DNA of 64,000 bases from Chiloscyllium plagiosum (taxonomy: Eukaryota): positions 9,333,804-9,397,803 of the forward strand of contig NC_057719.1 in assembly GCF_004010195.1 (NCBI RefSeq), in the 5' to 3' direction. Below the pieces are notes generated by a model that saw nothing but the letters and a program-made list of their open reading frames with translations, searched no databases and was not told where the DNA came from. The position numbers were made by a program, and so were the translations under genes. Positions 1-61,730 of this stretch are shown in pieces; position 1 is the first letter of the stretch; each line of letters begins with the position of its first letter.

Positions 1-375
1 AACAGTTTCCTCATTTCCCGTTCCCCCACCTCATCCTAGCTTCTAACCTCCAGAAACTCGCTCCCCTGACCTGTCCGGACTTGTCCGACCTGCCCAGCTC
101 CTTTTCCACCTATCCACTCCACCCTCTCCTCCCTGACCTATCACCTTCATCTCCTTCCCCACTGACCTATTGTACTCTATGCCACTCTCTCCCACCCCCC
201 CCCTCCTCTAGCTTATCTCTCCACGCTTCAGTCTCTCTGCCTTTATTCCTGATGAAGGGCTTTTGCCCGAAACGTCGATTTTGCCTGTCTTCGGATGCTG
301 CCTGAATTGCTGTGCTCTTCCAGCACCACTGATCCAGAATCTGGTTTCCAGCATCTGCAGTCATTGTTTTTACCT
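1..375 (+). mobile_element. Penelope-like element 3' end with terminal repeat (family A)
   Basis: Pyrimidine-rich 3' region ending in cctgatgaagggcttttgcccgaaacgtcga...ccagcatctgcagtc. The same terminus follows the GIY-YIG fragment at 1739-2401. Confidence 0.85.
245..280 (+). ncRNA. Minimal type-I hammerhead ribozyme motif (family A, intact core)
   Basis: CTGATGA 249-255, A, stem II GGGC-TTTT-GCCC, GAAA 269-272, CGTC 273-276. Short stem I tc/ga. Confidence 0.75.
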
Positions 376-1059
376 CAAATGGGTTAATGGCCTATTCCTG
401 TTTATTTGTCTTATGGTCTTATGAGGTAATTATATCTTGCAATTGGTCACCCCAATCTTTCCAATCATTCGCATGATCTTTCCTAAAACATCTCTAACTT
501 CCCTGACCACCATCCTCTATTACCTTTCCTCAGTCTCTGATTGCTTTCTCCCAATGCCATGGATACCCCCAGAGGTCTCCAGTATCTTCTATATCCCAGG
601 CCATGAATATGCCTTCCAAATCATCCCAAATCCCAATCCTCATGGCCACCTATCCATTCCTCTCCACTCACCCACCCACACTACCCCACCAACTTAATGC
701 CCACCTCTGCCTGAGACCTACACCCACAACTCTTACCCCCTCCCCTGTATCCAGCATTCAACACCATGCTTACTCCCACCCCAGGACCTACAATTCCCAT
801 GTCTCCAACAACCCTCACCACACCATGAAAGCTCAGACATCCCAGAACCTGAGGCTTCTGATCCCAGTCAGAATTTCCTTCCCTGTCCTCTCACCAACCC
901 ATCTGCACTTAACTCCAGCTTCAGTCGTGATGGTCCACTCCCGGGGGAGATCTCTGACCTTTCCACGCACCTCTGCAATTTAATCCCTTTTAAGTACTTC
1001 AATGGTGACCTGTTTACAAGAGTGAGGTAGGATCTCTTAGCAAAATGTTAAATTGCAGC

Positions 1060-1372
1060 AAGTCCAGACACAGTGACCACAGGAAGGCTGTTCCCAGTGA
1101 CTGGGGACTCCAGAATTGGGGTCACAGTTTTGGAATACAGCGTAGGCCTGAGATGAGGAGAGGCTTCTCACCCAGAGAGTGGGGAGTCTGAGGTATTCTC
1201 TGCCATAGAAAGTGGTTGAGGCCAAAATATTGAATGTTTTCAAGAACAATTAAGATACATTTCTTAGGGCTAATGGGATTAAAGGGTATGGGGAGAAAAT
1301 AGGAACAGGGCACTGAGTTGGTCATACTGAATGGCGGGGTAGGCTCGAAGGGCCAAATGGCGCACTCCTGCT
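1060..1372 (+). mobile_element. CR1-type LINE 3' fragment
   Basis: Typical CR1 3' sequence ending gaatggcggggtaggctcgaagggccaaatggc. Confidence 0.75.
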
Positions 1373-1465
1373 TTGTGTGTTTCACTGCACTCAGGCAGTT
1401 CACCTTGTTGCGTTGTAGCCTGGGTCCATGGATAGTGGCTAGAGAGGCTCCAATATCCTTTCCAT

Positions 1466-1724
1466 CACATGGCTCAGTGGATGGCACTGCTGCCTCACAG
1501 CCTTTGCCTGTGAATTTCTGTGTGGAGTTTGCACATTTTCCCCATTCCATCCCACAGTCCAAAGATGTGCAGGTTAGATGGATTGGCCACGTTAGATTGT
1601 CTGTAGTGTCCATGGATGTGCAGGCTAGGTGGGGTAGCCGTGCGAAATGCAGGTTTACAGGGATAGGGCAAGGGGGATAGGTCTGAGTGGGATGCTGTTC
1701 GGAGGGTTGGCATGGACTCAATGG
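1466..1724 (+). mobile_element. HE1-type V-SINE (tail resumes at 2416-2434 after a PLE insertion)
   Basis: tRNA-like head tggctcagtgg..gcactgctgcctcacag and core tgtgtggagtttgcacatt..cccacagtccaaagatgtgcagg. Confidence 0.85.
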
Positions 1725-1738
1725 GCCTAATAGTCTAA

Positions 1739-2401
1739 CTGCAACTAGGACAGGAGTCCCCAATGGTCCTCACCAGCCACCCCACCAACCTCCGTATGCA
1801 TCACATCATGCTCCGCCATATCCGCCACATACAAATGGACCCCATCACCAGAGATATATTTCCCTCCCTACCCCTATCCGCTTTCCGTAAAGACCGTTCC
1901 CTCCACGACTACCTCATCAGGTTCACGCCCCCCAACAACCCATCCTCCGCTCCGGGCACCTTCCCCTGCCACCACAGGAATTGCAAAACTGCGTCCACAC
2001 CTTCACCCTCACCTGCACCTGCACTTGCACACGTCATTTACTGTATCCGTTGCTCCTGATGCAGTCTCCTCCACACTGGGGATACAGGACGCTTACTCGC
2101 AAAACGCTTCAGAGACCATCTCCAACCAACCCCACCTGCGCCAACCAACCCCACTGCGTTGTGGTCAAACACTTCAACATCCCCTCCCTCTCTGTGAAGG
2201 ACATTCAGATCCTGGGCATCATCCCCAGCCCCACCCCCTCCCATTTATCTCTCCACCCCCGAAGCTCCCAGCCTCATTCCTGATGAGGGGCTTTTGCCCG
2301 AAACGCCGACTTTCCTGCTACTCGGATGCTGCCTGACCTGCTGTGCTTATCCAGCACCACACTCTCGACTCTAATCTCCAGCATCTGGAGTCCTCACTTT
2401 C
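1739..2401 (+). mobile_element. 5'-truncated Penelope-like retroelement: linker plus GIY-YIG remnant plus hammerhead terminus
   Basis: Translation ..DIFPSLPLSAFRKDRSL..PGTFPC..NCKT..VIYCIRCS and downstream HFN motif. Hammerhead core at 2280-2307 with GCC triplet. TSD gcctaatag(t/c)ctaa at 1725-1738 and 2402-2415. Confidence 0.85.
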
Positions 2402-3414
2402 GCCTAATAGCCTAAGTCCACACTGTCAGGATTTGTTGATGATGAACCTTTTTTTGGCCATCAAATGGGGAAGGTCTTGAATCCAGAGTGCCAGGCTGAC
2501 AGGTAGGAACATTACCCACTGGAGCACGAGACAGCTCTGTGCACATAAAATAAACAGTTTCAGGGGATTGCACTGTAGGCGTGTAGGGCAAGAGTAGGTT
2601 CCGAGCGACTAGTGATTAGGTCTTTCAATAAAAACTATCACAATCACGAAGGGTAAAATAACCTCCTATGGTCCCATAGAATTCTATCATCTGAGTAAAA
2701 TACTGTCACTGCACACTGCAATGTCATAAGTCACAGTGCTGCGCTCACTTTATCATTACATTTAGCAAAGATAAGCACACAGCAATCTCCTAAATATTTG
2801 AAGTTTTATGTTTTGGTTTATTTCTAAAGGATAAAATGAGTAAGGAGAAATTGCTGAAGTCATGAAACAGTTCTTAAATTGATTTTGAGCCTGCAATTTG
2901 CTATCCTCTGGAATTAATGGGATTTGGATTGTTGTTGACTCAATCAAACAGGGACTGCTCACAGATAAAGAGGCGGAGTACAGCCTTTATCGAGCTACAT
3001 TTACAAGTTGAGCAACAGATGACATTTCCCTGGAACTATTCCACAGTGGGCGGCCAGATCACAGGTTCAACCTTGAGCAAGAAACAAACGTCACAAAAGT
3101 GGTCCCTCTTCACACCCCAGGACGGTCATCACTTTGAGGAGAGGGGGGCATCTGCCAATGACTGCTGGGGGGTTCTGAGGTCCCAGAGACTCTGGGAACA
3201 AAAAGATGATTTGTGCTGAGGGGGGGAAACTGCCCACGATAACATGGGGTGTTTGAAAGGCCTTGGGGTCACAGCTAAAGGTGGGACGGCCAGGAAACTG
3301 GCAATGATGAGCAGTGTACAAGGTTGCTGGCATGTCCCCACCTCTGAATGTTTTGAGAAAAGCAGACTTGGGAAGTGGGGGTTGAAGCAAGGGTTGGTCA
3401 AGAGATGTTTGAGC

Positions 3415-3677
3415 TTAGATTCCCTACAGTCCACACCGACCTTCTGAAGAGTAACCCACCCAGACCCATTTCCCTCAGACTAATGCACCTAACACTATGG
3501 GCAATTTAGCACGGCCAATTCACCTGACCGGCACATCTTTGGACTGTGGGAGGAAACCCACACAGGCACGGGGAGAATGTGCAAACTCCACACAGACAGT
3601 CGCCCAAGGCTGGAATCTAATCTGGGACCCTGGGGCTGTAAGACAACAGTGCTAACCACTGAGCCACTGTGCCGCCC
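3415..3677 (-). mobile_element. HE1-type V-SINE
   Basis: Reverse complement of HE1 head, core and tail. Confidence 0.9.
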
Positions 3678-4029
3678 AATGTCTAGTCTGATAAAGCCTA
3701 CGGAGGCAATGTTTTGTGGCCATCAGGACTTGTACAGAACCCTGCCAACACAAGGAGGCAGCTTCCTGATGGCACATACAGACTGGGTTGGAGGTGGGGG
3801 TGACGTGGGGAGGAGGAAGTGGTGGTATAGTCAGTGCTCTGACACCCTGTCACCCTAAACCTGCAGCTGATTCTTAGAGATGGTCATAGATACATCTGCT
3901 TTTTAAATTTAAAAAAAATCTTCAAAGGATGCTCCATCTGGAGGGGCCCTCTCTCTTATTGAAGGAGCAATCTCGAGGGGCTGAATGGCCACTACTATCC
4001 CTGAGTTTCAAAGCTACTTCCCTCAGTGT

Positions 4030-4822: not shown

Positions 4823-5046
4823 TGATGTGGAGGTGCTGGTGTTGGACTGTGGTGGACAAAGTCAGAAGTCACATGACCACCAGGTTATAGTCCAGCAGGT
4901 TTATTTGAAATGACAAGCTTATGGAGTGCTGCTACTTTTTCAGCTGAAGTCGCTTCACCTGGAGAAGGAGCAGCGCTCTGAAAGCTTGTGTAATCGCAAA
5001 TAGACCTGCTGGACTATAACCTGGTGTCATGTGACTTCTGACTTGG
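4823..5046. mobile_element. Fold-back PLE terminal-repeat element (family B) with 12-bp TSD
   Basis: Inverted arms. TSD tcccagaagtta at 4811-4822 and 5047-5058. Degraded hammerhead cores flank the apex. Confidence 0.85.
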
Positions 5047-5539: not shown

Positions 5540-6470
5540 AACATCAGAACAGGAGCAGGCCATTCAGCCTGCTGAGCCTGCTCTGCCATTCAATCAGATA
5601 ATGACTGGATCATCTCAACAGCACTTTCCAGCAGGATCTCAATGTCACCTGGCGTCATTTGGGTCCACAAATCTATCCATTTCTGAAATGAACCTTCACA
5701 GCTCTCCGGGGTGAGGGTGGGGGTGGTGGTGGTGGTGCTTGGTTAGCAAATCTGAACGATTCCACCATCCTCTGAGTGAAGAAATTCCTCCACATCTCAG
5801 TCTTAAATCTCATTAGATTCCCTACAGCGGCACGGTGGATCAGTGGTTAGCACTGCTGCCTCACAGCGCCAGGGACTTGGGTTTGATTCCACCCTCAGGC
5901 GACTGTCTGTGTGGAGTTTGCACATTCTCCCCGTGTCTGGGTGCTCTGGTTTCCTCTCACAATCCAAAGATGTGCAGGTTAGGTGAATTGGCTGTGCTAA
6001 ATTACCCATACTGTCCAGCGATGTGCAAGTTAGGTGCATTGGTCGGAGTAAATATAGGGGAATGGGTGGCTCTTTGCAGGGTTGATATGGACTTGTTGGG
6101 CTGAAGGGCCTGTTTCCACACTGTAGGGAATCTATGATTTCTAAATGGCCTGTCCCTTACTCTGATTTTAGATTCACTAGCCAAAGGAAACTTCCTACCC
6201 ACATGTGCCCTGTCATGTCTTGTAAGAATTTTGTACATTTCAGTGAGACCACCTCTCACTCTTTGAAAATCTAGCTACTGCAGGTTCAGTTTCTTCAACC
6301 TGTCCTCATAGGTCAAGGCCGTTACTACAGGGGTTTCTGCAGAATCTCCTTTGCACTCCCTCCACTGCATGTGCATGCTTCCTTCGGTAAGGGGACCATA
6401 ATTTTACAAAACATCCCAGGTGCAGTCTCAACATGGTTCCATCCAATTGTTGCAAGATGTCTTGACTCCA
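5540..6470 (-). mobile_element. CR1-type LINE 3' fragment interrupted by an HE1 SINE
   Basis: Minus translation MRGGLTEMYKIL..D. CR1 tail at 5540-5610. Confidence 0.7.
5826..6140 (+). mobile_element. HE1-type V-SINE
   Basis: Full head-core-tail ending ctgtagggaatcta. Confidence 0.9.
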
Positions 6471-6497
6471 GTGCATGCATTTCCTGGCAATACTTTT

Positions 6498-6794
6498 TTA
6501 GATTAGATTCCCTGCAGTGTGGAAACAGGCCCTTCGGCTCAACAAGGCCACACCGACCCACCAAGGAGTAACCATCCAGTCCCATTTCCCTCTGACTAGT
6601 GCACCTAACACTATGGGCAATTTATCATGGCCAATTCACCTGACCTGCACATCTTTGGACTGTGGGAGGAAACCCATGCAGACACGGGGAGAATGTGTAA
6701 ACTCCACACAGACAGTCGCCCAAGGCTGGAATCAAAGCTGGGATCCCTGGTGCTATGAGGCAGCAGTGCTGACCACTGAGCCACTGTGCCACCC
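6498..6794 (-). mobile_element. HE1-type V-SINE
   Basis: Full reverse copy with (ttaga)n tail. Confidence 0.9.
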
Positions 6795-7115
6795 TGGGCT
6801 ACTTACCTTCTGCCTTCCCAGTTTCTGGCTGACCTGACCTACACCACCCCTCCATCCCCACCCCCACATCAAACCTAAACAATGTAATCCTCTCCCCAAC
6901 TCTCACTCTATCCAAGAAATAACCCAGCAAACGGAGAGTCAGCTGCTCAGCGATGCTCAGGATAGTCCTCTCATAAAGCATCAAGGCAGATATTTTGTGG
7001 GCCTTAAAATCCACAACTTATCACCTCAGTGCAGAGAGTGAAGATAATACTCGATATAAACCAGCAAGATATCTGACTTAGGTCTGAGATGAGGGGGAAT
7101 TATTTTATTCAGAGA

Positions 7116-8673: not shown

Positions 8674-8773
8674 GAAAGACACAGAAATTGCTGGCAAAAC
8701 TCAGCAGGTCTGGCAGCAGCAGTGGGGGAAAAGCAGAGTTCATGTTTCGAGTCTAGTGACTCTTCATCAGAAC
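8674..8773 (-). mobile_element. PLE terminal repeat with hammerhead motif (family C-like)
   Basis: Minus strand gtt-CTGATGA-a-gagtc-acta-gactc-GAAA-catg-aac. Confidence 0.75.
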
Positions 8774-9222: not shown

Positions 9223-9624
9223 CTCTGTCTTGATGTTGAGTCCCAGAGGCTTCTGGATCCTCAAGCCTGGACCTAGCCTTCAATAATTTTAGAGTTCAAT
9301 AACTTTCGAGTAATAATGTTTGTTTAATGAGACAGTACTGGCATGATGGGCTGAAATTCCTCCTTCTGCATCAGCTGTAATTCTGTGAGTAGAGCCATTA
9401 TGTTCCCCTCTTACCTTTGACAGTCAGCCTACCTTTTGTCCTTCCATTTTTGACATCACTCATTGCAAACTCCCACACCTCATTCATTGCTCACTTTGCC
9501 TTTAAGACACCAGCGTCTCTCATGATAAGTGCTTCATCATTCCCCAAAGCTTTTACTTTCCTTAAAGGCCATGTCAAAGTTGGAAACCTCTCCCTCGCGA
9601 TGGCTCCTTCAATACCCTCTTAAA

Positions 9625-9908
9625 CCGTGGTGGCTCAGTGGTTAGTACTGCTGATTCACAGCACCAGAAACCCAGGTTCAATTCCAGCCTCAGGCGACCG
9701 TCTGTGTGGAATTTGCACATTCTCCCTGTGTCTGTGTGGGTTTCCTCTGGGTGCTGTGGTTTCCTCCCACAGTCCAAAGATGTGCAGGTCAGGTGAATTG
9801 GCCACGCTAAATTACCCACAGTGTTAGGTGCATTAGTCAGAGGGAAATGGGTCAGGTTGGGCCGAAGGGCCTGTTTCCACACTGTAGGGAATCTAACCAT
9901 CTAATCTA
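9625..9908 (+). mobile_element. HE1-type V-SINE
   Basis: Forward HE1 copy with an internal deletion. Confidence 0.9.
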
Positions 9909-10310
9909 AAACTCTTGACTGGTTACAAGAGAAAGTTCATGTGTAAGCAAAATCACATTTAGCTTTCTTGCCCAGCTTTCCTTTCTTCGTTTTATCAGGA
10001 ATATTATGATTTTTCCTCTTCCATTGCTTTTGTTTGTTTGAGTTTCCAAACCTACATTTACTCCGCAGCCCCCACCAACATCCTGAGCTGTCACAGCAGA
10101 ACTTAATCGCGATAATTTACCCAATTGCAGAAGTACAAATGAGTGCAACTCTTATATTTCCCCAGTTATACCTTACCCCTTACAATCCACAGATCTTCGA
10201 AACCCAAATCTGACATTGACAAATCATTATGGCCGAAATCATCCCAACTTTGATTTCAACCTCAAAATGACTGTTCACCCCAGTGTTTTGACTTAATTAT
10301 AGAGACACCG

Positions 10311-11047
10311 AGTCACAGAGCTATAGAACATGGAAACAGACACTTCAGTTCAACTTGCCCATTCCAATTAGATATCCTAAACGAATCTATTTATATTTGC
10401 CAGCATTTGGCCCATATCCCTCTAAACCCTTCCTATTCATATACCCATCCCGATGCCTTTTAAATGTTGTAATTGCACCAGCCTCCACCACTTCCTCTGG
10501 CAGCTCATTCCATACATACACCACCCTCTGTGTGAAAAATTTGCTCCTTCGGTCCCCTTTAAATCTTTCCCCCTCTCACCTTAAACCCAAGCCCTCTGGT
10601 TCTGGACTCCCGCACCCCAGGGGAAAAAAAACCTTTGTCTGTTTATCCTATCCATGCCCCTCATGATTTAATAAACCCTGATATGGTCACCCCTTAGCCT
10701 CCGACGCTCCAGGGAAAACAGCCCCAGCTTATTCAGCCTCACCCTATAGCACAAACCCTCCAACACTGGCAACATCCTTGTAAATCCTTTCCTAACCCTT
10801 TCAAGTTTCACAACATCCTTCCTCTAGCAGGGAGACCAGAATTGCAAGCAGTATTCCAAAAGTGGCCTCACCAATGTCCTGTACAGCTGCAACATGACCT
10901 ACTAACTCAATGCACTAACCAATAAAAGCAAGCATACCAACCACCTTCTTCACTATCCTGTCTACCTGCAACTCTATTTTCACAGAACTATGAACTTGCA
11001 CTCCAAGGTCTCTTTGTTCAGCAACATTCCTCAGAACCTTACCATTA
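10311..11047 (-). mobile_element. HER1/CR1 LINE 3' fragment
   Basis: Reverse of gtatggaatgagctgccagaggaagtggtggaggctgg and the ORF2 C-terminus. Confidence 0.85.
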
Positions 11048-12260: not shown

Positions 12261-12828
12261 AATTACAGTTCTGATTGCAGGAGTTTTGAGGGATGGGGAA
12301 TAAATTAGCCTTTTTGAGAGGGGGGGCAAGCGATTACTGTGACACTAAAGTCTGTAAACAATGCCTAAACTTCATTATGTGCTAATCGATGGATGCTTGG
12401 CTGCTTGTCCTGTATCGATGGGTGTAAATTCCTTTGTAAACAATTAATGAAGTTTAAATCCAATTTTGCTTACCTAGACTAGTTTGTTATTGGGTAATAG
12501 ATGGGTCATGATGAGTTACAGGACACTCACTCAATCTGTGACATCCTGAAGCTCAAATGATTTTGTGCATATCAATAGAATGATGACTCATTGTCTTGTA
12601 CACACTGCAGGTCATTTCCAATTCTTGATTGAATATTTAAACAATACTGAAGGAAAACTTCTTGAAATTGTTACCTGTCAGCAAAATGAAAGCTTGATAT
12701 CTTGGAAAGAAGTCAAAGTAATGCATCTTCATGCGCCCTCAGGCCTTGTCTCCTCATATTGCATTACTGCCAAAACACTACAAAGTCTATTGGGTGACAA
12801 GGAGGAAGAGGAAAAGGGCTCCAATTCA

Positions 12829-13052
12829 AAGTAGAAAAGCAGGAGGCTGGGAGAACACAGCAAGCCAGGCAGCAGCAGGAGATTAAGAAGTCAACTTTTT
12901 GGGTATTAATCGAGTAGGATTAAATTCTAATCCTGAAGAAGGGTTAATACCTGAAACGTTCTCTTCTCCACCTCCTGATACTGTTTGGCTTACTGTGTAC
13001 TTTCAGCCTCCTGTTTGTCTACTTTGGATTCCAGCATTTGCAGTCTTTTTTG
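12829..13052. mobile_element. Fold-back PLE terminal-repeat element (family D)
   Basis: Arms aagtagaaaagcaggaggctg / cagcctcctgtttgtctactt. Hammerhead core ctgaagaagggttaatacctgaaacgtt. Confidence 0.75.
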
Positions 13053-13095: not shown

Positions 13096-13293
13096 GGAGA
13101 AAGTGAGGTCTGCAGATGCTGGAGATCAGAGCTGAAAATGTGTTGCTGGAAAAGCGCAGCAGGTCAGGCAGCATCCAGGGAACAGGAGAATCGACGAAGC
13201 CCTTCCTGAAGAAGGGCTTATGCCCAAAACGTCGATTCTCCTGTTCCCTGAATGCTGCCTGACCTGCTGCGCTTTTCCAGCAACACATTTTCA
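13096..13293. mobile_element. Fold-back PLE terminal-repeat element (family A) with 14-bp TSD
   Basis: Near-perfect inverted arms. TSD cctcttatagttta at 13082-13095 and 13294-13307. Confidence 0.9.
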
Positions 13294-14708: not shown

Positions 14709-15165
14709 AGGCCAGAATTTGGTGCCCCATTCCTAATTGCCCAGAGAGCAGTTAAGAGTCAATCACATTGCTTTGGGTCTGGAGTCACATATAAGCCACA
14801 CCAGTTACAAAGGCTTGTCGATCTTGGATTCCAGCATCTGTTGGTTTTTTGCCGCTAACGAAAAAGGGCTATACCCAAAACGTTGACTTCTCCATCTCCT
14901 GATGCTGCTTGGCTTGCTGTGTTCTTCCAGCCTCCTGCTGGTCTATGCAGGTAATGAGGAAGGCAGTTTCCTTCCCTAATTAATGAGCCAGAAAGGATTT
15001 TCCTGACTTTCGACAATGGATTCATCGTCATCATTGGACTCTCTAATTCCAGATATTTATTGACTTCATATTCCACCATCTGGCGGGATTTAAACTGGGT
15101 CCCCAAAACATTATCGGCTTCATTGGACTAACAGTCTAGCAATAATACCATGAGGCCATTGCCCC
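14709..15165 (-). mobile_element. tRNA-type SINE family 2, containing a family D PLE insertion at about 14815-14945
   Basis: gggtctggagtcacat..ggcagtttccttccc motif shared with 22482, 46640, 54280 and 58003. Confidence 0.75.
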
Positions 15166-15619
15166 TCAGGACATTACAAAGTCAAACTTAAACTTGGGAT
15201 TGTATGATGAGCAAATGTAGTTTTCAAATCTGGAATCTAAATAACTCTGTTCACTTAAAAGTGTCTCCCATTTCTAAAAATAAAAGAAACAAACTCTTGG
15301 CAATAACACAATTTTTTTTGCTGTTCAGGGTACCTTTCATTCAACTGATGAGTAATGATGACATTATCGCAGAAGTGTACAAGTGAGCTGACTTAATCAA
15401 CAGTTAAAAATGATGCGATTACCAAAGCAGATCGTGTTAATTACTGTATTCAAATTATGCAAATACACAGCCCCTTGTACTGGTGAGCTGAGTCACACTT
15501 ACAAACCAAAGTTCCTCTGTGATTCTGCTCATTGTTCACACAATATCCTGTGGATGTTACAGAGTGAATTACAGCAACTAGGCCAAGCTCTGCTGAGGGA
15601 TCAAGGCAAATAACCTTTA

Positions 15620-15709
15620 ACGAAAGTGGAATTTGCTGGAGAAACTCAGCAGGCCTGAAAGCAGAGTTAGCATTTCAAGTCCACTGGCCCATCTTCAGAA
15701 CATAAAGTT
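15620..15709 (-). mobile_element. Short PLE terminal repeat (family C) with 9-bp TSD
   Basis: taaccttta at 15611-15619 and 15710-15718. Degraded hammerhead. Confidence 0.65.
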
Positions 15710-16522: not shown

Positions 16523-16584
16523 CCTGCTGGCTGTAGAGTAACCAAAGAGTAAGGGTCACGAGGACAGAGTTTATAGTTGAATCG

Positions 16585-17124
16585 AATCACAGAATCCCTA
16601 CAGTGTGGAAGCAGGTCATTCAGCCCATTGAGTCCATACTGACCCTCCAAACAGCCACCCTCCGAGACTCACCCCATCCCTGTGACCCTGCATTTACCAT
16701 GCCTAATGCACCTAACCTGCACATGGAACAGGGCAGCCCTTCCTCATGAAGGGCTCCTGCCCGAAACATCGATTTTCCTGCTCTTTGGATGCTGCCTGAT
16801 CTGCTGTGCTTTTCCAGCAGCACACATTAATCTTATCTCTGCACATGGAACAGTACAGTGCAGGAACAGGCCCTTCAGCCCACAATGTTGTGCTGAACAT
16901 GACATTAAATTAAACGAATCTCTTCTGCCTGCGCTGGGTCCATGTCCTTCCACATTTACATGCTTTTGCACTGTGGGAGGAAACCGGAGCACCCAGAGGA
17001 AACCCATGCAGACACGGGGGAGAATGTGCAAACTCCACACAGACAGTAGCCCGAGCCTGGAATCAAACCCAGGTCCCTGGCGCTGTGAGGCAGCAGCGCT
17101 AACTACTGAGCCACCATGCTGCCC
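16585..17124 (-). mobile_element. HE1-type V-SINE with nested LINE tail and PLE insertions
   Basis: HE1 tail at 16585-16720 and head at about 16965-17124. Confidence 0.85.
16732..16838 (+). mobile_element. Short PLE terminal repeat (family A) with 15-bp TSD
   Basis: ctgcacatggaacag at 16717-16731 and 16839-16853. Core ctcatgaagggctcctgcccgaaacatc. Confidence 0.85.
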
Positions 17125-18079
17125 AATGTCATACACAAGGTAAAAATTCAGGTACCAGTCATTTGCATCGGTATCTCAGATAATAAACAATAGCTTCAAT
17201 ATGCCAGGTGGTAATTGTGACCAAGGTATTTCACATGGATTCTCATAAGCTATTAGTCAAGTGAGAACAAGTACTGCAAACTATTAATTAAAGTGTAGAC
17301 AATGTATGGGAAAAATGTATTTTGCTCCGAGTTAGTAATATCTATTAAGATGGATTAACCATCAAGTGATGAAGTAAATGTATTACCAAATTCTTTGTCT
17401 GAATGTCATGAAGAAGTATTGCCTAATGGTGAGCAATAGAGACTTAAAAGTAAGTACATTTTGAAATATGATAACTTGAAGAAAATAATGCGTGAGCTTT
17501 CAAGAGGCAACTAGATAAATCCACCGATCTTCAGGGGCTATGAGGAAAGATCAAGACATTAATTGTAGTGCTCATTCAAACAGGCACAATGGGTGAAATG
17601 GCTTCTTGCTCTGTTGTATCATTTTATGCTTCTGCGAACCCAGATCAATCCTCCCCTCTGTTTACTCCTTTAATCTACATGGGTAAAACTGTTGAAAGGC
17701 ACCAAAGAAAGACTATTTTCTTCAGAGTTGAGATGTACAATATTTCACGGGAGACAAGAAAGTGCTGTCAAGGTTTAAAGTGCCTGAGCTATGTGGGTGA
17801 GCCACAATGTTAAATGTGACTCATTATGTACATGAAATCTTTTGAGATGGTGCCTCTGTAAGATTCTTCACTGAAATAAAAGAAGTAGACCTTTTTAGAG
17901 TGATTATGGCTAAGAGATATGAGCTACGTTTTTGTAATGGGTCACAAAAAGCACAATGAGCCAGGTCTTACCAGGTTCTAATGGACACTGAACGGAACAG
18001 GCCAAATGACTCCAATTAGAAGCTTGATGGACACATAAGTGGTGTGTCCTACAATGTTCTGCACATCTGTATTATTTAA

Positions 18080-18609
18080 TAGAGTCACAGAATAATAGAT
18101 ATGTACAGCATGGAAACAGGCACGTCGGTCCAATTCGTTCATGCTGACCAGATATCCTAATCTAAGCTAGTCCCATTTGCCAGCAATTGGCCCATATCCC
18201 TCTAAATCCTTCCTATTCATAGACCCATTCAGATGCCTTTTAAATGCTGTAAATGTACCAGGCTCCACCACTTCCTCTAGCAGCTCATTCCATACATGCA
18301 CCACTCCCTGCATGAAAATGTTGCCCCTTAGGTCCTTTTAATATCTTTCCCCTCTCACCCCAAACCTATGCCCCTCTAGTTTTGGACACCCCCACCCCAG
18401 AGAAAAGACCTGTTGTTTTTTACCCTATCCATGCCCCTCATGATTTCATAAACTGCTATGAGGTCACCCCCACAGCCTCCGACTCTCCATGGAAATCAGC
18501 CCCAGCCTGATCAGCTTCTCCCGATAACAGAAACTCTCCAACCCTGGCAACATCCTTGTACATCTTTTCTGAACCCTTTCAAGTTCCACAACGTCCTTCC
18601 GATAGGAGG
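18080..18609 (-). mobile_element. HER1/CR1 LINE 3' fragment
   Basis: Homologous to 10311-11047. Confidence 0.85.
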
Positions 18610-18749: not shown

Positions 18750-18950
18750 GCAACAATAATACTGGAAATGCACATCACGTCAGGCAGAACCTGTTTCAGG
18801 TCGAGACGCCCTCCCATCAGAATTGACAAAAAACAGAAAAGTGAGGGTTTTTAAACAGTACAAGTTGTAAGGGGGCAGGAAGTAGAACCTGGAAGCCCTG
18901 TATCTCTCAAATGGCAGAGGTTTGGTGAGGCAAGGGTGGGAGGAGGCAGG
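18750..18950 (-). mobile_element. Degraded PLE 3' end
   Basis: gtcaggcag..gtttcaggtcgagacgccctcccatcagaa followed by purine-rich tract. Confidence 0.45.
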
Positions 18951-27390: not shown

Positions 27391-27539
27391 TCACTGATGA
27401 GGCCAAGGAAGAACCTAATTCAAGGGGAAAAAATTTCAGACCGAAACATCGATGGATGGGAAGTTTCGGATTGATTGGAGAAGGGAACAGGAAACTGCAG
27501 TTAGAAACTCTTCAGAGATTGGAACTAACTTTACTGGAA

Positions 27540-30600: not shown

Positions 30601-30632
30601 ACCACATTTTGGATTAGTGGTGCTGGAAGAGC

Positions 30633-32674: not shown

Positions 32675-33400
32675 AGGGGAAGGAGGCTGGAAGAACACAG
32701 CAAGCCAGGCAGCATCAGGAGGTGGAGAAGTCAATGTTTTGGGTGTGAGCCTTCTTCAGCACTAGGGTGGGTTTGGGGGGAGCTGCAGATAAAGGGGGTG
32801 GAAGGGGCAGGGTGATGAAGTGGGGATAGGTGAAGAGAGGGAGAGGGTATGACCTGATTGGTCAGTGAGAGAAATGAATCCAGTTGGTGGCAGGGAGTAA
32901 TGGAAGGGAGAGGGAGGGGCTGTGAAAGGAAGTTATTTGAAATTGGAGAACGGTGGCACGGTGGCTCAGTGGTTAGCACTGCTGCCTCACAGTGCCAGGG
33001 ACCCGGGTTCAATTCCCACCTTGGGCAACTGTTTGTGTAGAGTTTGCACAATCTCCCCGTGTCTGCATTGGTTTCCTCCTGGTGCTCCGGTTTCCTCCCA
33101 CAGTCCAAAGATGTGCAGGTCAGGTGAATTGGCCATGCTAAATTGCCCATAGTGCTAGGTGCGTTAGTCAGGGGTAAATATAGGGTAGGGGAATGGGTTT
33201 GGGTGGGTTTCTCTTCGGAGGGGCAGTGTGGACTTGTTGGGCTGAAGGGCCTGTTTCCACACTGTAGAGAATCTAATCGAGTCTCAATGTTGAGTCCTCC
33301 ATGTGGAAGATGAGGTGTTGTTCCTCCAATTTGCGGTGCGGCAATGGAAGAGGCCAAGGATGGTCTTGTTGGAAAGGGGATTTTGTTGGCTGTTTGGTCA
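32675..33400 (-). mobile_element. Penelope-like element 3' fragment (family D terminus), split by HE1
   Basis: Reverse terminal repeat at 32675-32765 and body ..ttgaaattggagaac|tcaatgttgagtcc. Confidence 0.75.
32952..33279 (+). mobile_element. HE1-type V-SINE
   Basis: Full-length copy. Confidence 0.92.
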
Positions 33401-37509: not shown

Positions 37510-37797
37510 GCATCTCATCTTCCTGGCTGACGATCATCAACCCCTTTGTCCACCTCCTCTTTCTCTCTCTTTCAGAGCTCTGTCTCCACCTACCCATTCC
37601 CTCCTTTCTCCCCAGTCTCCATCATCAGCACACATATAACCTTTCTTTAGCTGCTATCAGTTCTGAAGAAGGGTCATTGGATCCAGAACATTAACTTTGA
37701 GTCTCTTTTTCATAGGTGTTGCCAGATGGGCTGAGTTTCCCCAGCAATTTCTGTTTTTGCTCATTTCAGATCTCAAGCATCTGCAGTTCTTTGTTTT
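37510..37797 (+). mobile_element. PLE 3' end (family C) with hammerhead motif
   Basis: agtt-CTGAAGA(37663)-a-gggtc-attg-gatcc-agaa-catt-aact. Confidence 0.7.
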
Positions 37798-38649
37798 ATG
37801 TTGGTGGCTATCATTGCTTGTTATTAAAGCCTATCTAGACAGCTTTGGAAGAAAGGAATCTTACATCTTCGACTGGCCTCTGTGTGACTCTAGATCCACA
37901 GCAATGTGGTTTCCCCCCCCCTAACTGTCCATGAAATAACCCCACAAGCTACATGGGTCAACAGCAAGTAGGGATGGCTAACAAATACTTGCCTTGACAG
38001 TGATACCTGCTTTCCATGCAAAATCTATAAAAAGAAACAATATTTAAATAAGTAAGTTAATATATTTTCACTGTGACTAAAAGGTGAAATCTCAGCACAA
38101 AAGAAAATCCTGGGTTTCCTAACTCTCAGAGATCAGCATAAACTCTCATTGAGTTCAAAGGACAGATGGAATGTTACAGCTAAAAGCATCAAAGAAATTT
38201 TCAACAGACTGAGATCACCTGTGTTTCCAAAAATAATGGGGGACTGATGACCCTCTGCTTAAGCTACCCCCTTTTGATTATGTCCCAAGCTACAGGCATA
38301 TTTCATATGTTTCCCTTTGAGGAATATACAAGGAGTGGAGTTAAGCCAGTTTCAACTGTACTGGAGAGCGCTCGTGGGACTGAGCATTCTCATGTCCCTT
38401 AGCCTGGATTGGAGCATTGGCATATTATGAAGATCACAGTTGAAGAACTATCCCCTAGTCATCCCTGTGCGATGGGTAAAGAATCTCTCACTCTGAATGA
38501 TGGAAGCAATCTAGGCAGCAGTCAGATGAAAGGGAAACAGGACAAAAAAGGACTCTATCTCATTCTGGATTCAATCTTGGTCAGAAGGAATCAAAATTAT
38601 AGAATCTCACCAGTCTTCAAAACAAAGGTTCATGAAAATAGCTCCCCCG

Positions 38650-38762
38650 TTCTGACCCGAAACATTAGCTCTGATTTCTCATGCTACCAGATCTGCTGAG
38701 CTTTTCCAGCAATCTCTATGTTTGCCTCTAATTTACAGCATCTGCAGTCCTTTCATTTTTTT
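38650..38762 (+). mobile_element. PLE terminal repeat fragment (family C)
   Basis: gacccgaaacattagctctg..ctgctgagcttttccagcaa..cagcatctgcag. Confidence 0.65.
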
Positions 38763-39138: not shown

Positions 39139-39310
39139 AACAAAAAACTACTCGAGATCACACTCAATGCTCTGATGAAGAGACATCTAGATTTGAAATG
39201 TTAGCTTGCTCTGTCTCTCTCTCTGTGGATGCTGTCAGGCCCACTGTGATTTCCAGCATTTTTTTTTTTGTTTTCAGTACAGATTTCCAGCATCTGCAGT
39301 AATTTTGTTC
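39139..39310 (+). mobile_element. PLE terminal-repeat element (family F) with short inverted arm and 16-bp TSD
   Basis: ctgcaat(t/c)gtaataaa at 39123-39138 and 39311-39326. Core gct-CTGATGA..GAAA-tgtt-agc. Confidence 0.8.
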
Positions 39311-51195: not shown

Positions 51196-51618
51196 GGCTG
51201 GATTTGTCATCCAAAGCAGCAATCACATTATGAGAACACAAGTGGGCCATTCAGTCCCTTGAGGGCTTGCTGTCATTTCATGAGACTGAGTGGTATACTC
51301 TGCACCACTTCCCTGCACTAGTGCTGTATCCCTTGAGGTTTTTGGTGTCTAGAACTGCATCCACCTCATTCTATAATGTGTTCAACAACTGAGACACCAC
51401 CGCTATTTGGGTTAGAGCACTCTAAACATTCACCAGCTCAAGTGAAGAAATTCCTCAGTCCTCAAGGACCAACCCTTTACTCTGAGAAGGGAGAATGTGT
51501 AGTTTGGGTGGACTGGTTGAGAAGAAGATGTGATTGCCAGTAAAGTTGATTGCCAAAAGAACCAGAGGGGGAAATAAGGAAAATCATTTTGACACATCAA
51601 CTTGTTCTATCCTAGAAT

Positions 51619-51823
51619 GAGGTTAAAAATCACACAGCACCAGGCTATAGTCCAACAGGTTTATTTGGAAACACTAGCTTTTGGAGCATTGCTACTTCAT
51701 CAGGTGGTGAAGGAGCAGCGCTCTGAAAGCTAGCGTTTCCAAATAAACCTGTTGGACTATAGCCTGGTGCTGTGTGATTTTTAACTTTGTACACCCCAGA
51801 CCAACACCGGCACCTCCAAATCA
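51619..51823. mobile_element. Fold-back PLE terminal-repeat element (family B)
   Basis: About 75-bp inverted arms. TSD-like tatc(c/t)t(a/g)gaat at 51608-51618 and 51824-51834. Confidence 0.88.
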
Positions 51824-53055
51824 TATCTTGGAATACACAAGCTGGAAAGGATGTGGAAGCAGACTCAATAGTTTCTTCTAAAAGGGTACGGATGAATGCT
51901 TGAAAAATCAAAATTACTGGACAACTCTGGTGAAAAGTGCAGGCTGTGTGCAGGGACAGACAGCTTAGATAAAGGGGAGGGCTTTTATTCAAAGAGATGG
52001 TAGAGGGGTGACACATTGTGGTGTTCCGCTGGGCTGCAGGATCATGCAGTTCCACATCTCGCTGAGTGAAACTGCACGAACGGGTGGGGCCAAAGAGAGC
52101 GATGCAATCCCAGAGAAAGGCCAGGCGTTCCCGCTCCTCATCAAGGGAGGGATTTGGCTTGCTTTGCGACGGGATTATCACAGTACAGCTCAGCCAGAAG
52201 GATCCGGTCTCAAATTTAATTGCGTTCTTTTATCGACTCAAGAGTGCAAATCGCACCTGCTCGATGGATGAAAAGGTGCAAATTAGGTCACACATAGATA
52301 ATCAGCTGCTCTGCTTTCACCGCCCACACTGGAAGATGTATCAAATATGTTACATTTTTATGATGTGTTCCACAGCACAGATAGCTCCATGCTGACAGTG
52401 TAGCAGTGCATCTGAGATACACAAAAGTATCACAGCAAGTGGAATGCTGCGGGGGCACGTTGCAAGTTGCTTTTTTTTAAATGTCTCTGAATCATCATTT
52501 TGAAAATCCTAAAAAACATCACCAAACTATATTTTCTGAGGTTCCTTGATTGATTTTCTAATAGACTGGCTTTCTCTTTTAACTCTCCAATTCTGTGTAT
52601 TCACATCTGCTCTCCTCCTACAGAGGAGCTGTCAGTGCCTGGTCTAAAAGTGACCCTGGCTGAGAGGGTCTTTGGGAGGACGAGACTTTAGACAGAGCAG
52701 AGTAAGCTACTTGATGCACTGCATCTGCTTCACCATGCATTGCAATTTGATAATCCTCAATCCCACTTTGCTGCTTTGTCCACATGACTCTTCATTCCCT
52801 TACTGATTATAAGTCTATTTAGCTCAGCCTTGAATATACTTCATGACCCAGCCTTAACAGCCCTCTGTGTAAAGAATTCCACAGATTCATCATCTTCCAA
52901 CAGAAGAAAGTCTCTGTCTTAAAGGGGCACCCCCTGACTCTGACATTAAGCCCTCAATCTTTCCACATCTACCTGAACAAACATTCTCTCGGAGCTGTTC
53001 CACACAGTGTGACAAAACAGTTTTGCACTGGGGACTAAGAACAGTAGTTTTATCA

Positions 53056-53320
53056 AGAGTGTGGTGCTGGAAAAGCACAGCAGGTCAGGCAGTATTCGAG
53101 GAGCAGGAAAATCAATATTTCGGGCAAAAGCCCTTCATCAGTAATGTCCCCAGGAGGACCAGTTCCACCACAGAGCACACCAGATGGCCTCCATCTTAAA
53201 GACTGCAATTTTCCCTCCCATGTGGTTGATGATGCCCTCCAGCACATCTCATCCACATCCCTCACCTCCACCCTCAAACCCCACCCCTCCAACCGCAATA
53301 AAGACAGACCCCCCTCCTGA
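53056..53320. mobile_element. Inverted family A terminal repeat fused to a plus-strand PLE ORF fragment
   Basis: Minus-strand repeat 53056-53140 ends at cccttcatcag, then QFHHRAHQMAS.LK..FP..VV-like PLE linker. Confidence 0.75.
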
Positions 53321-54945: not shown

Positions 54946-55050
54946 GGTCTGAAGAAGTGTCTCTTGTCCTGAAACATTAACTCTGTTTTCTTTCCACAGA
55001 TGCTGCCAGACCTGCTGAGTTTCTCCAGTGATCTTCAGATCTCCAGTATT
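54946..55050 (+). mobile_element. PLE terminal repeat (family C)
   Basis: CTGAAGA at 54949 ..gaaacattaactctg..gatgctgccagacctgctgagtttctccag. Confidence 0.7.
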
Positions 55051-55053
55051 TTT

Positions 55054-55371
55054 AGATTAGATTACTTACAGTGTGGAAACAGGCCCTTTGGCCCAACAAA
55101 TCCACACTGACCCTCCGAAGAGCAACCCACCCAGACCCATTCCCCTACATTTACCCCTTCACCTAACACTACGGGCAATTTAGCATGGCCAACTCACCTA
55201 ACCTGCACATCTTTGGACTGTGGGAGGAAACCAGAGTACCCGTAGGAACCCCACGCCAACATGGGGAGAATGTGCAAATTCCACACAGACAGTTGCCTGA
55301 GATGGGAATTGAACCCGGGTTCTCTGGCACTGTGAGGCAGCAGGGCTAACCACTGTGCCACCGTGCCACCC
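55054..55371 (-). mobile_element. HE1-type V-SINE
   Basis: Full-length reverse copy. Confidence 0.92.
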
Positions 55372-57409: not shown

Positions 57410-58000
57410 CATCGGACCAGTAGTAGGTCATTCAGGCCCTTGAACCTGTTCTGTCATCCAATGAGATCATGGTTGATCTGTGGCCTAGTTTCGAGAGTGT
57501 GGTGCTGGATAAGCACAGCAGGTCAGGCAGCATCCGAGGAGCCATTCATCAGGAGTGACTGTCCATTCAGTACTGGTCGACCAGGAATGACCAGTCACTC
57601 CTGAAGAAGGGCTTTTGCCCGAAACATCGATTGTCCTGCTCCTCGGATGCTACCTGGCCGGCTGTGCTTTTTCAGCACCACACTCTCGAATCTGATCTCC
57701 AGCGTCTGCAGTCCTCACGTTCTACTCGTTGATATGTGGCCTAACTCTATGTACCTTTGGTCCACATTTGCTTAACAAAAATTTATCTCCCTCAGTTTTA
57801 AAATTAGTAACTGATCTAGCATCAATTGCTGCTGGGGAAAGAGAGTTCCAAAAGTCTACCTTCCTTTGTGTATAGAAGTACTTCCTAACATCTGTCCTGA
57901 ATGATCTGGCCCTAATCTTTAATTTATGTCCCCTAGTTCTAGAATCTTCAACCAGTGGAAATAGTTAGACTTTATCTACCCTGTCTTTTGCTATTAATAT
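57410..58000 (-). mobile_element. CR1 3' tail hosting a fold-back PLE insertion
   Basis: gtaggtcattcaggcccttgaacctgttctg..gagatcatggttgatctgtggcc. Confidence 0.7.
57488..57727. mobile_element. Fold-back PLE terminal-repeat element (family A) with palindromic spacer and 16-bp TSD
   Basis: TSD gttgat(c/a)tgtggccta at 57472-57487 and 57728-57743. Hammerhead core at 57601-57628. Confidence 0.9.
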
Positions 58001-58002
58001 CA

Positions 58003-58345: not shown

Positions 58346-58492
58346 AACTCTTGACGACTTCAATCAGATCACCCCTTAACCTTCTAAATTCAAGAGAAAT
58401 CAGGCCAAATTTGCATAACTCTCCTAATAATTCAGAAAGGAATAAGGGGAGCCAAAATCCCATAATAAATACTGCTTGAAGAAACACACATT

Positions 58493-58772
58493 GGCATGAT
58501 GGCTCAATGGTTAGCATTACTACTTCACAGCACCAGGGGCCCAGGATTGATTCCAGCCTCGGGTAACTGTCTATGTGGATTTTGCACATTCTCTCTGTGT
58601 CTGACTGAGTTTCTTCCAGGTGCTCCGGTGTCCTCCCACAGTCCAATGTGCAGACGAGGTGGATTAGCCATGGGAAATGCAGGGTTATAAGGATAGGGAG
58701 GGATGTTCTTCTTAGGGTTGGTGTGGACTCAAATAGGCCAAATGGGCTCCTTCCACACTGTAGGGATTCTAT
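58493..58772 (+). mobile_element. HE1-type V-SINE
   Basis: Forward copy. Confidence 0.85.
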
Positions 58773-58819
58773 GATCTGGGCTGAGCTGACTGCAGCTGAC
58801 AAAGTCACAAACACACTTT

Positions 58820-59122
58820 GGGGCAGCACAGTGGCTCAGTGGTTAGCACTGCTGCCTCACAGCATCAGGGACGTGGGTTCGATTCCAGATTTGGGTGACT
58901 GTGTGGAGTTTGCACATTCTCCCCATGTCTGCATGGATTTCCTCTGGGTGCTCTGGTTTCCTCCCACAATCCAAAGATGCTAAATTGCCCATTGTGTTAG
59001 ATGCATTAGTCAGGGGTAAAGATAGGGGAGTGGGAATGGGTTTGGATGGGTTACTCTTCGGAGGGTCAGTGTGGACTTGTTGAGCTGAAGGGCCTGTTTC
59101 CATGCTGTAGAGAATCTAATCT
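58820..59122 (+). mobile_element. HE1-type V-SINE
   Basis: Forward copy. Confidence 0.9.
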
Positions 59123-59370
59123 AATAACATAATATTAATAATGAACATGGATTGAGGTTTAATATCAGCATTACTGGATGCAGAAATGGGTTTGAAGGGT
59201 TGTTATTCTGAAAGAGCAGACCGTAGGATACAGAGAAGCTGGGGGTGTGCACAATCAATTAAGAAAAGGTTTGTTGAAAGAATGTACATTGACTTTATTC
59301 TTAAATGGTTCGGATTGATTCATCTTTGACACATGAGAAAAAAATTGTGTGTGCATATATAAAGAGGTAT

Positions 59371-59682
59371 CATAGAATCCCCACAGAGTGGAAGCAAGCC
59401 ATTCACCCCGTGGAGTCCACACCCACCCTCTGAAGAGCACCTACTTCATCCCTGTTACCTCACATTCCCTATGACTAATCCACCCAGCCTGCACATCCCT
59501 GGACACTACGGGCAATCTAGTATGGTCAATCCACCTAACCTGCTCATTGGACTGAGGGAGGAAACCGAAGCAGCCGGAGGAAACCCCCGCAGACACGGGG
59601 GAGAATGTACAAACTCCACACAGACAGTCGTGCAAGGGTGGAATTAAACCCAAGTTCCTGGAGCTGTGAGGCAGCAGTGCCT
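59371..59682 (-). mobile_element. HE1-type V-SINE
   Basis: Reverse copy. Confidence 0.85.
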
Positions 59683-59709
59683 AGCTACAATGCCAAGTAT
59701 TATGTGATG

Positions 59710-59839
59710 ATTCGGAGATGCCGGTGTTGGACTGGGGTGTACAAAGTTAAAAATCACACAACACCAGGTTATAGTCCAACAGGTTTAATTGGAAGCACAC
59801 TAGCTTTCAGAGTGACGCTCCTTCATCAGGTGATTCACT
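59710..59839 (-). mobile_element. Single PLE terminal repeat (family B) with 15-bp TSD
   Basis: aagtat(t/a)atgtgatg at 59695-59709 and 59840-59854. Confidence 0.85.
59798..59832 (-). ncRNA. Minimal hammerhead ribozyme motif (family B)
   Basis: Minus strand CAC-CTGATGA-A-GGAGC-gtc-ACTCT-GAAA-GCTA-GTG. Stem I CAC/GTG; stem II shows CpG-type decay. Confidence 0.65.
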
Positions 59840-61545
59840 AAGTATAATGTGATGTTGCATTGTTGAAATCTATTCTAATCTTCTGGCACACATCAGTCAG
59901 AAGCATAGTTGCACAGATCCAGAAACTGCTCAGTACACTTCTTCGTTATTAGGTACTTAAACAGGTTATCAACTTATTCTATGCATTTGTTTTTGCTTTC
60001 ATATTGAACACTCAGTGCACTGTCAGCATAAAAATACAAGAAGGAAACTATTATATGGTATTTGGGCAGGGAAAGGGGGAGGAGGAGAGGGCTGCTGTCT
60101 TAAACACACTAGAGAGAGAGGCTGAGAGTTTGTGTTTCTGTTCACTTAGCAGCAACATTCACTCCCAAAGCTTTCGAGATAGGTCATTTTATCTCATGTT
60201 TCAGTATGCCTAGTCTACCATCTTCCCATTATAGCTTCGAGCTGCAATTTACCTGGATCCTGCTGCACAGTAAATGCGATGGTGGGCGTCGAGGTGACAG
60301 TAAGGGTGAAAGTAAGAATGAAATGATCAACAGGCTTGGCAATCATGTGACAGACCAAATTCTCTAATCTGTAATTCCATCGTACATCAGTCTGCAATCA
60401 CACCATTACTGTGTATGAATCCACTTTACTGCATCATTAGTTCAATCAACAACCATATTATTAGGGCATTTGCATTACACAGGTAATTTATTTTTTTTTA
60501 AAGAATACAATCTAATGTGTCATTACCAGAGACACAAGTGTCAATTGTGCAGTGGCCTGCAGAACGGTAACCAAAATTAATTCCCATTCTGTTCACCGTT
60601 AGGTTGCCCCAGAATTGTGGAAATGAAGATTACATTCCTTGCTATGGATTTCTGGAAATCTATCACTTTGCAAAATCATTCTAGTGTAATATGTGGGCAC
60701 AGCAGCAAAAATTCCGAAGCTTGACAATTGCATGGAAGAGCAGCATTATGTTGGTGCTGGCTTGTTTATAATGGCTGAGCTCATGCAGTGACTAAATGAG
60801 CAGAGAGGTGCACATTAGATGCACACTTTCTCCATCGACCATGACAGTTCTACAACAACAACCTTCCACAGTGTAGCAAAGCATTCCAAGAGGTTTTGCA
60901 TGTCATCAAGCAAAAACTCGACTGTCGATCACACAGTGTGACGTGAGGCCAGGTGACCAAAGGGTAAGAAGGTTCAGAAGGGTCTTTTAACAAACCAAAA
61001 GGCCAATAGAGAGGCTTAGGGAGACTTGACAGCTGAAGGATGACTTCATTCCCAAAATTTTAGTACAGATAACCACAATTAATTTGCGTGGAGAAAATCA
61101 TTTTAAATTTACTTTGGGGCACCAAATCTTATAGCTGGAATCTCCATATCCTAGCTATAATTTTTAATTGCACTTTTATATTTCATGCCATGAAACCTAT
61201 TGCTCCCATTTCAGAATATCCATCCATTGTTGCTCTTCATAAAGGGACTGGTTAAAACACTACTTAGTTGTTACAGCACAAGATGTTCTGTCCCATTAAG
61301 CATTTCATTAAATCATTCCATACATAGTCCAGTAATTGTGAGTATTCTTCCACATGACGAAACTGACAATCATCTCGACACATCTGAAAGGGGAAAAAAA
61401 AAGACCTGCATTTATATAACACCATCTGCCCTAATGTCTCCTGCAAAGCTGAGTTGTAAATTTTGTTTCACAATTCCTCTGTGAAATGTCGTGAGAGGTT
61501 TACATTGAGCATTGGAAGCAGTTTAATGAAGGTTTACTGGATGAG

Positions 61546-61730
61546 CACTGAGGAAGGGTCACTGGATTCTGGATTAGAGTGGTGCTGAAAAAGCACAGTA
61601 GTTCAGGCAGCATCCAAGGAGCAGGAAAATCGACGTTTCAGCCAAAAGCCCTTCATCTGGACCTGAGCCGTTAACTCTGATTTCTTTCTACAGATGCTGC
61701 CCCAGGCCTGCTGAGCTTTTCCAGCAATTT
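61546..61730 (+). mobile_element. Family C PLE terminal repeat interrupted by a reverse family A repeat (61567-61656)
   Basis: ctgaggaagggtcactgga|insert|ctggacctgagccgttaactctg. Confidence 0.8.

Follow-up and report, generated by a model that had tools for sequence, protein, structure and literature searches.

A stretch of 64,000 nt from the shark Chiloscyllium plagiosum (assembly GCF_004010195.1, contig NC_057719.1, positions 9,333,804 to 9,397,803 of the forward strand; hereafter the window, at its full length) was analyzed for repeats carrying hammerhead ribozyme motifs. Alignment of the window to hand-chosen natural reference copies called 27 pieces of the end repeat (pLTR) carried by Penelope-like elements (PLEs). 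A recognizable hammerhead region was present in 21 of them, and the other six were cut inside or after the hammerhead. The repeats are hammerhead pLTRs of several PLE lineages, and we consider it likely that their stubs of 90–130 bp are promoter-less run-off copies of capped, uncleaved transcripts. The pieces are listed below, with open reading frame abbreviated as ORF and untranslated region as UTR; core positions are those of the first core C.

1..375, plus strand: family A 3′ UTR and long-form pLTR; TATA-like CTTATCT at 212-218, predicted start A at 245.
247-278 (inside 1..375), plus strand: intact family A hammerhead, predicted to be cut between 276 and 277.
1748..2403, plus strand: 5′-truncated element, probably Neptune-type; its degraded linker/GIY-YIG remnant (1748-2223) and a family A pLTR (core 2280, U16.1 mutated) run in the same sense.
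4823..5045, both strands: family B head-to-head pair with one long and one short arm; cores 4943 (minus) and 4959 (plus), both damaged; 13-bp target-site duplication.
8680..8773, minus strand: family C solo stub; core 8770, CATG after GAAA, damaged.
12823..13050, both strands: old D-type inverted pair; core 12933 (plus) present, helix I lost.
13096..13293, both strands: young family A inverted pair with a 15-bp duplication; core 13206 (plus) with GAAA changed to AAAA; the other arm (13126-13196) tallied as core-less, its core columns holding gaps or unrelated sequence.
14860..14945, plus strand: D-type stub, core damaged.
15619..15701, minus strand: family C stub; core 15698, damaged.
16732..16836, plus strand: family A solo stub; core 16743 damaged; 16-bp duplication.
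18750..18791, minus strand: core-less family A pLTR fragment.
30603..30632, minus strand: core-less family A pLTR fragment adjoining an N gap.
32681..32818, minus strand: D-type pLTR; core 32759 damaged; upstream sequence approximately 70% like the family A 3′ UTR.
37517..37785, plus strand: family C copy that keeps its body upstream; core 37663, GAAA lost; helix I agtt/aact; TATA-like box at 37633.
38628..38750, plus strand: damaged family C stub.
39169..39269, plus strand: stub of family F; core 39172, where the palindrome has become TG.
51617..51824, both strands: inverted pair of family B whose heads overlap; cores 51703 (minus) and 51704 (plus), both damaged.
53053..53314: family A stub (core 53141, minus) head-to-head with a plus-strand PLE ORF fragment (53145-53314).
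54946..55038, plus strand: family C stub; core 54949, palindrome decayed.
57487..57722, both strands: inverted pair of family A that contains filler; core 57601 (plus), palindrome decayed; other arm core-less.
59710..59835, minus strand: family B solo stub with intact hammerhead; core 59829, predicted cut between 59801 and 59800; begins with G and AATCAC, with a long tail and a 15-bp duplication.
61548..61730: family C pLTR (plus) apparently interrupted by a family A stub (61565-61661, minus, core damaged).

The layout described in a first-pass annotation of the window, two helices arranged around CUGANGA and GAAA, was found with its coordinates to be right. The first core C lies at 249 (plus), 59829 (minus), 8770 (minus), 39172 (plus) and 37663 (plus), and helix I starts at 59832 for the core at 59829 and at 8773 for that at 8770. 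A stringent pattern, requiring unaltered CUGANGA and GAAA, a helix I of 2 bp or more and, following one extra base, a helix II of 3 bp or more, gave 7 matches in the window versus 0.05 in 20 shuffles, and 24 matches in 267,728 bases taken from 28 arbitrary genome positions versus 0 in six shuffles. Because the matches far exceed those in shuffled sequence, the window motifs are not due to chance. No hammerhead family was matched when the window was scanned with Rfam; the sole match at E ≤ 1 was to mir-1253, was sub-threshold (35 of 103 bits), and came from the family A inverted pair at 13096..13293.

Covariation was counted with positions anchored on the core, using the commonest base per lineage in eight lineages of 3 to 87 copies each. 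Paired helix positions numbered 65 of 72, whereas shuffling of partners among lineages gave a mean of 40.9 and a maximum of 54. The resulting P value is optimistic because the lineages share ancestry (B and B2, for instance, are sisters) and some of the words used for assignment include the 3′ strand of helix I; despite this, the compensatory changes are plain, and stems I and II do vary while staying paired, as had been claimed. Helix I is 2–4 bp long (just 2 bp in family A), and its pairs take three different forms across lineages. The first pair of helix II (10.1-11.1) is G-C in seven of the eight lineages, the 15.2-16.2 palindrome is CG in six and GC in two, and U16.1 is the commonest base in all eight. 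The extra base after CUGANGA, which was said to be A in every family, is A in the window lineages and in six of eight overall, but it is T in lineages G and H, both found outside the window. The repeats are, from their sequence, minimal type-I hammerhead motifs of the type known from PLEs, for which cleavage is predicted, presumably only as a dimer or with the help of protein. Copies of G and H (L052:2224-2947, L061:9133, L051:522, L068:4926, and L060:1095) also have a longer helix II and a TATA word approximately 50 nt upstream, and the 15 copies showed no 5′-end pile-up at helix I.

Most window hammerheads are damaged, a frequent cause being a CpG-type change in the ACGT palindrome. All core letters are kept in four copies, and core, both helices, NUH and palindrome are kept in only two of 21 (249, plus, and 59829, minus). 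Copies of families C and F had been offered as examples; their layout and positions held, but the copies themselves are damaged. Thus, the family C copy at 8770 reads GAAA-CATG, with G at position 17 and the palindrome broken, the family F copy at 39172 reads TGTT, and the second family C copy, at 37663, is the one without GAAA. It is very improbable that the window copies are ribozymes used by the host to cut its own transcripts. Although two copies are intact and pLTR sequence occurs in RNA reads of a related organism, the other 19 of 21 are damaged, largely by CpG-type core changes. One family A stub, when folded, preferred an alternative hairpin (−11.4 kcal/mol) to the hammerhead (−7.2 kcal/mol), which agrees with the monomers that do not cleave in PMC4209133.

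The elements that carry these repeats were traced from the decayed frame at 1748-2223, which runs in sense into the pLTR with core 2280 and has 58,312 first-look candidates in the 3.56-Gb genome. Pfam gave no match for this decayed PLE remnant among the window frames, and the link to reverse transcriptase (RT) and GIY-YIG was found in its relatives: GIY-YIG was matched in five of nine relatives' frames scanned (E 3e-5 to 2e-3), with a weak RVT_1 match (E 0.005) in the same frame as GIY-YIG at locus L043. Longer relatives of family A have RT motifs, then a C-x4-C-x2-C linker, then GIY-YIG, and this linker fits the form CX2-5CxxC of endonuclease-containing (EN+) PLEs of the Neptune clade. The family B linker is similar but decayed. 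Family B pLTRs (L071, L130, L079) and family C pLTRs (L115, L122) lie downstream of their own divergent remnants; these consist of linker and GIY-YIG only, whereas RT together with GIY-YIG was seen for family A. The upstream sequence of the D-type is family-A-like. Families A, B and C thus each appear to end an RT/GIY-YIG element of their own, likely of the Neptune clade, an assignment made from the linker motif only. The suggestion of several parallel PLE lineages is borne out to this extent, with A, B and C each downstream of a distinct remnant. Three long open frames (1434, 775 and 733 aa) were rejected because they are runs of N.

Some further features of the carriers were noted. At L041:1757-3355 (minus) and L045:6957-8255 (plus), a family A frame stays open from GIY-YIG across 3′ UTR and hammerhead and over most of the pLTR, if not all of it, which suggests that the pLTR may be coding in tandem units. 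In family B, the 3′ UTR has long stretches rich in (CA)n, which lie past the end of the ORF and ahead of the pLTR (L071:7880-9200, L130, L079). Upstream of lineage G, L036 has a different GIY-YIG remnant, which we take to be possibly Poseidon-type.

Exact intact-core patterns were found genome-wide 73,405 times (family A), 12,343 times (family B) and 80 times (family C), with 0 matches to reversed controls. A sample of 535,699 bases (the window, two flanks and 48 arbitrary stretches) contained 162 pLTR pieces, 34 of which have intact core letters (the four window copies included), and the stubs made up approximately 3% of the sampled DNA (16,056/535,699 bases). A rough extrapolation from these 535.7 kb is approximately 1 million pieces and 200,000 intact cores in the genome. 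The very high abundance that had been proposed is therefore upheld.

Copy ends were analyzed after the unselected flanks of 60 search loci were added and 22 of 237 copies that touched N or a sequence edge were dropped (n = 215). The arms of 42 head-to-head pairs accounted for 84 of the 215 copies, and tandem context was found in four; no head-to-tail pLTR array occurred among the six tandem repeats of the window. The 3′ ends fell at two sites approximately 30 nt apart, either at +84 to +97 or at +120 and beyond (the references stop at +124). One long and one short arm were combined in 34 of the 42 pairs (P = 3e-5). Target-site duplications of 9–19 bp were called around 27 of the 42 pairs and around 21 of 71 short solos, versus 1 in the mismatched control. 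Because the stubs are flanked by duplications of their own, they are direct single insertions and not deletion remnants. The idea that the two arms of a pair often come from different families was rejected, with just two such cases in 42 pairs, that of the window being a nested insertion. This family A stub (61565-61661) was apparently inserted into helix II of the family C pLTR, and PLEs may favor other pLTRs as targets. Many stubs form long hairpins. The inverted pairs (e.g., window 13163-13263), which are common genome-wide, do so as well; as microRNA precursors they have a weak score, and double-stranded RNA could arise from them.

The 5′ ends of 189 copies of families A, B and C, counted from the first core C, were concentrated at the 5′ edge of helix I: 59 lay at −10 to −2 and 11 across −50 to −17 (34 positions), with 23 at +7 to +25 and nine at +26 to +34, around the predicted cut (pile-up at −10 to −2, P = 1e-29 and 2e-13). 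Stubs start at an A approximately 30–33 nt past an AT-rich box, in a context such as TCATTC or TCAGTT, and approximately 30 nt is the usual spacing from TATA to initiator. Body-bearing copies have a TATA-like word at −30 to −40 in 15 of 16 cases in family A, eight of nine in family B and three of six in family C; the short stubs are without this upstream box. In reads and contigs from three public runs, the most frequent upstream loose end was the same 5′ base. Copies starting at the cleavage site were also considered and rejected, there being no excess of 5′ ends at that site locally or genome-wide. In family A2, a non-template purine just before the cut site was found 537 times genome-wide, compared with 578 times for a non-template base two bases further on (control). 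An apparent family A1 cluster at the cut site in a smaller sample was not upheld in a larger one, and one raw-read run showed no read pile-up there.

The base at the junction was frequently G. In tallies made by hand on the first 100 matches listed per position, family B had G67/T23/A10 at −9 (of 3,293 matches) and G25/T55/A20 at the control position −12 (of 1,003 matches), whereas family A had G64/A36 at −5 (of 18,351 matches) and G37/A63 at the cut site; each contrast has P of approximately 2e-4. In the sampled loci, G was the junction base for 27 of the 58 copies at the hotspot (16.9 expected, with a few rows being body-bearing copies that were misclassified). All 41 G-junction motifs in 40 fetched loci, taken as the first G matches outside the earlier sample, begin at the initiator-like A; upstream of them the sequence is either unrelated or that of an inverted arm, and a junction G inherited from a variant subfamily of the body was rejected on this basis. 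An untemplated 5′ G in L1 and SVA has been attributed to copying of the cap (PMC3287187).

A cause other than the cap could in principle give such a pile-up: the endonuclease might cut the element at an ATT-like site of its own, a splice acceptor might lie at helix I, or RT might drop off and then add a terminal C. We regard this as improbable, although the anole enzyme prefers ATT near the junction of ORF and pLTR (PMC11167929) and family A has ATT at −4, a D. virilis intron ends at helix I (PMC4209133), and the junction G is often explicable as microhomology. Families B and C pile up too without ATT at that place, no shared upstream exon was seen, and the start on an A past the AT-rich box recurs in three lineages. 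Nor is G enriched at other ends, with 8 of 31 longer truncations (8.9 expected) and the cut-site count already given.

We propose that the TATA-like box in the upstream 3′ UTR would make RNA polymerase II start where helix I has its 5′ edge, at the initiator A. The RT/endonuclease would then nick both target strands, with priming at one of two internal sites approximately 90 or 125 nt downstream. RT would copy back to the cap, of which the extra G would be a trace, and a second arm, primed on the other strand, would join head-to-head by microhomology. Stubs would thereby lose the TATA-like box and then decay, with the ribozyme being selected only in transposing lineages; a cut would strip the cap together with the first 32–37 nt of the mRNA. 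This scheme matches what is described for an anole PLE in vitro, namely an internal start, extension on both strands, and uncleaved RNA (PMC11167929).

Several observations weigh against this account. The family A word, YTTATCT, is a non-canonical TATA, and no ORF link was made for D and F. Of 10 loci chosen because their frames are long, none yielded an intact ORF or a full-length tandem, and no duplication was found for 50 of 71 solos. The G was clearly untemplated in just two of eight solos with a called duplication and could be microhomology in others, and at many of the 41 junctions its template might lie in the target duplication or in the inverted arm. The extra-G test was devised post hoc, and the −12 control also has more G than A (25:20). 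In a public raw-read run, 2,411 reads came from both strands, as in read-through, with no start pile-up; a second run had no pLTR reads, and two further runs consist of contigs, which are uninformative on starts. No public run found to contain the sequence is catalogued as RNA. Finally, the missing cut-site ends may mean that cleaved RNA is unused or destroyed, and they do not imply that the ribozyme is inactive.

Alternatively, the stubs might be a self-propagating non-autonomous class, similar to short interspersed nuclear elements (SINEs) or retrozymes, with an internal promoter and mobilized in trans. Defined 5′ and 3′ ends, duplications and a copy number near 1 million would suit such a class, as would the internal promoter of D. 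virilis Penelope, with its ACGT downstream element (PMC2377424), given that ACGT in family A lies 28–31 nt past the predicted start. We nevertheless find this unlikely because the AT-rich box is left behind by stubs, tandem context is as rare as stated, cut-site 5′ ends expected of units born by cleavage are missing, and the loop variants of family A stubs are also found attached to bodies. For the same reasons, the very abundant non-autonomous ribozyme class of the first-pass annotation is supported in its abundance but not as a ribozyme-driven system. As a separate observation, the palindromic ACGT of family A (window 273-276, +24 to +27 from the core) is at the distance from the predicted start at which the D. 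virilis downstream promoter element contains ACGT (PMC2377424), and it may have a dual role.

A bolder extension of the capped-transcript reading is possible but doubtful. The capped mRNA of Neptune-type PLEs might begin with the first base of helix I, with the ribozyme serving as a dimer-gated self-decapping switch that cuts when transcripts are abundant. The approximately 1 million stubs would then be a fossil library of uncleaved transcripts, comparable to one made by rapid amplification of cDNA 5′ ends (5′-RACE), and the palindrome arms would represent one priming event per target strand.

Cervera and De la Pena had already published the covariation in 2014 (PMC4209133), along with the motif, its extra nucleotide and the palindrome, and described a minimal motif in covarying families with thousands of dispersed copies and opposite-strand pairs. 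The copies analyzed here share with those minimal hammerheads the type I core without a helix III loop, the palindromic 15.2-16.2, G10.1-C11.1, one extra nucleotide that separates 9 from 10.1, the presence of several covarying families in one genome, and a prevalence of dispersed single copies with opposite-strand pairs. They differ in number, with at least 85,828 exact intact-core matches (three patterns) compared with approximately 4,000 in coelacanth and 9,000 in Xenopus, and in helices, helix II being short (4–5 bp) in families A–C and helix I 2 bp in A. The 5′ pile-up and extra G are not described in the accessible portion of that paper. Because the ribozyme type is known, finding the motif is in itself ordinary.

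With Neptune EN+ PLEs (Craig et al. 2021, PMC8557442; Arkhipova et al. 2013, PMC3846280), the elements share RT, a Cys linker, a C-terminal GIY-YIG, 5′ truncation, an adjacent inverted copy, a tail of 30–40 bp on one arm, and duplications; the one-sided tail with an inverted copy is textbook for EN+ PLEs. The TATA and initiator-like motif of the rotifer pLTR described there is shared as well. They differ in that most insertions here are the pLTR alone with a fixed 5′ edge. Rotifer solo pLTRs are ascribed to recombination or deletion (PMC3846280), whereas solos here carry their own duplications. With the Anolis Poseidon element PAc in vitro (Frangieh et al. 2024, PMC11167929), for which uncleaved RNA is the main substrate, they appear to share an internal RT start (111–118 nt after helix II in PAc), a tail between two start sites, and nicking and extension of both strands. 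PAc belongs to another clade and its ORF starts at helix II, whereas the shark copies are known from sequence alone.

Non-LTR retrozymes (PMC7229834; bioRxiv 10.64898/2026.07.22.740005) are likewise non-coding, PLE-related, equipped with a type I hammerhead, and very numerous, with up to 120,000 copies in axolotl (Cervera and De la Pena 2020, PMC7229834). They are head-to-tail arrays that give circular RNA, whereas copies here are solo or head-to-head and start before the cut site and not at it. Head-to-tail hammerhead units, which define retrozymes, were found here in no more than the four tandem cases among 215 copies and in none of the six window tandem repeats. A canonical hammerhead with a helix I of approximately 6 bp and loop contacts was not found either, helix I being 2–4 bp with no Rfam match. 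Literature searched by title and the start of the abstract, with incomplete coverage, included no report on shark PLE hammerheads or on a start at the hammerhead; the supplements of the 2014 paper and of the bioRxiv manuscript may list such motifs.

The genome offers a large natural record that bears on the role of the hammerhead in PLEs, in which inserted templates appear uncut and begin at the 5′ edge of the ribozyme. The start-site and extra-G signature makes this role testable, with exact start sites (−4 in families A and C, −8/−6 in family B, counted from the first core C) and a capped cleavage product of 32–37 nt with GUC, CUA or GUU at its end being predicted.

Other repeats are also present in the window. 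An abundant SINE family with a tRNA-like head, which we presume to resemble the shark HE1 SINE, was found at 5824-5939, 9619-9848, 32950-33179, 49215 and 58488-58935 (repeat families D1, D5, D8 and D15), with opposite-strand copies near 3430-3680, 6500-6795, 16580-17125 and 55050-55370. Fragments of long interspersed nuclear elements, presumably of the CR1/L2 type, lie at 27219-27788 (Pfam RVT_1, E 7e-9), 10300-10900, 18085-18590, 28050-28550 and 39986-40540, and a 188-bp tandem duplication occupies 28101-28482.

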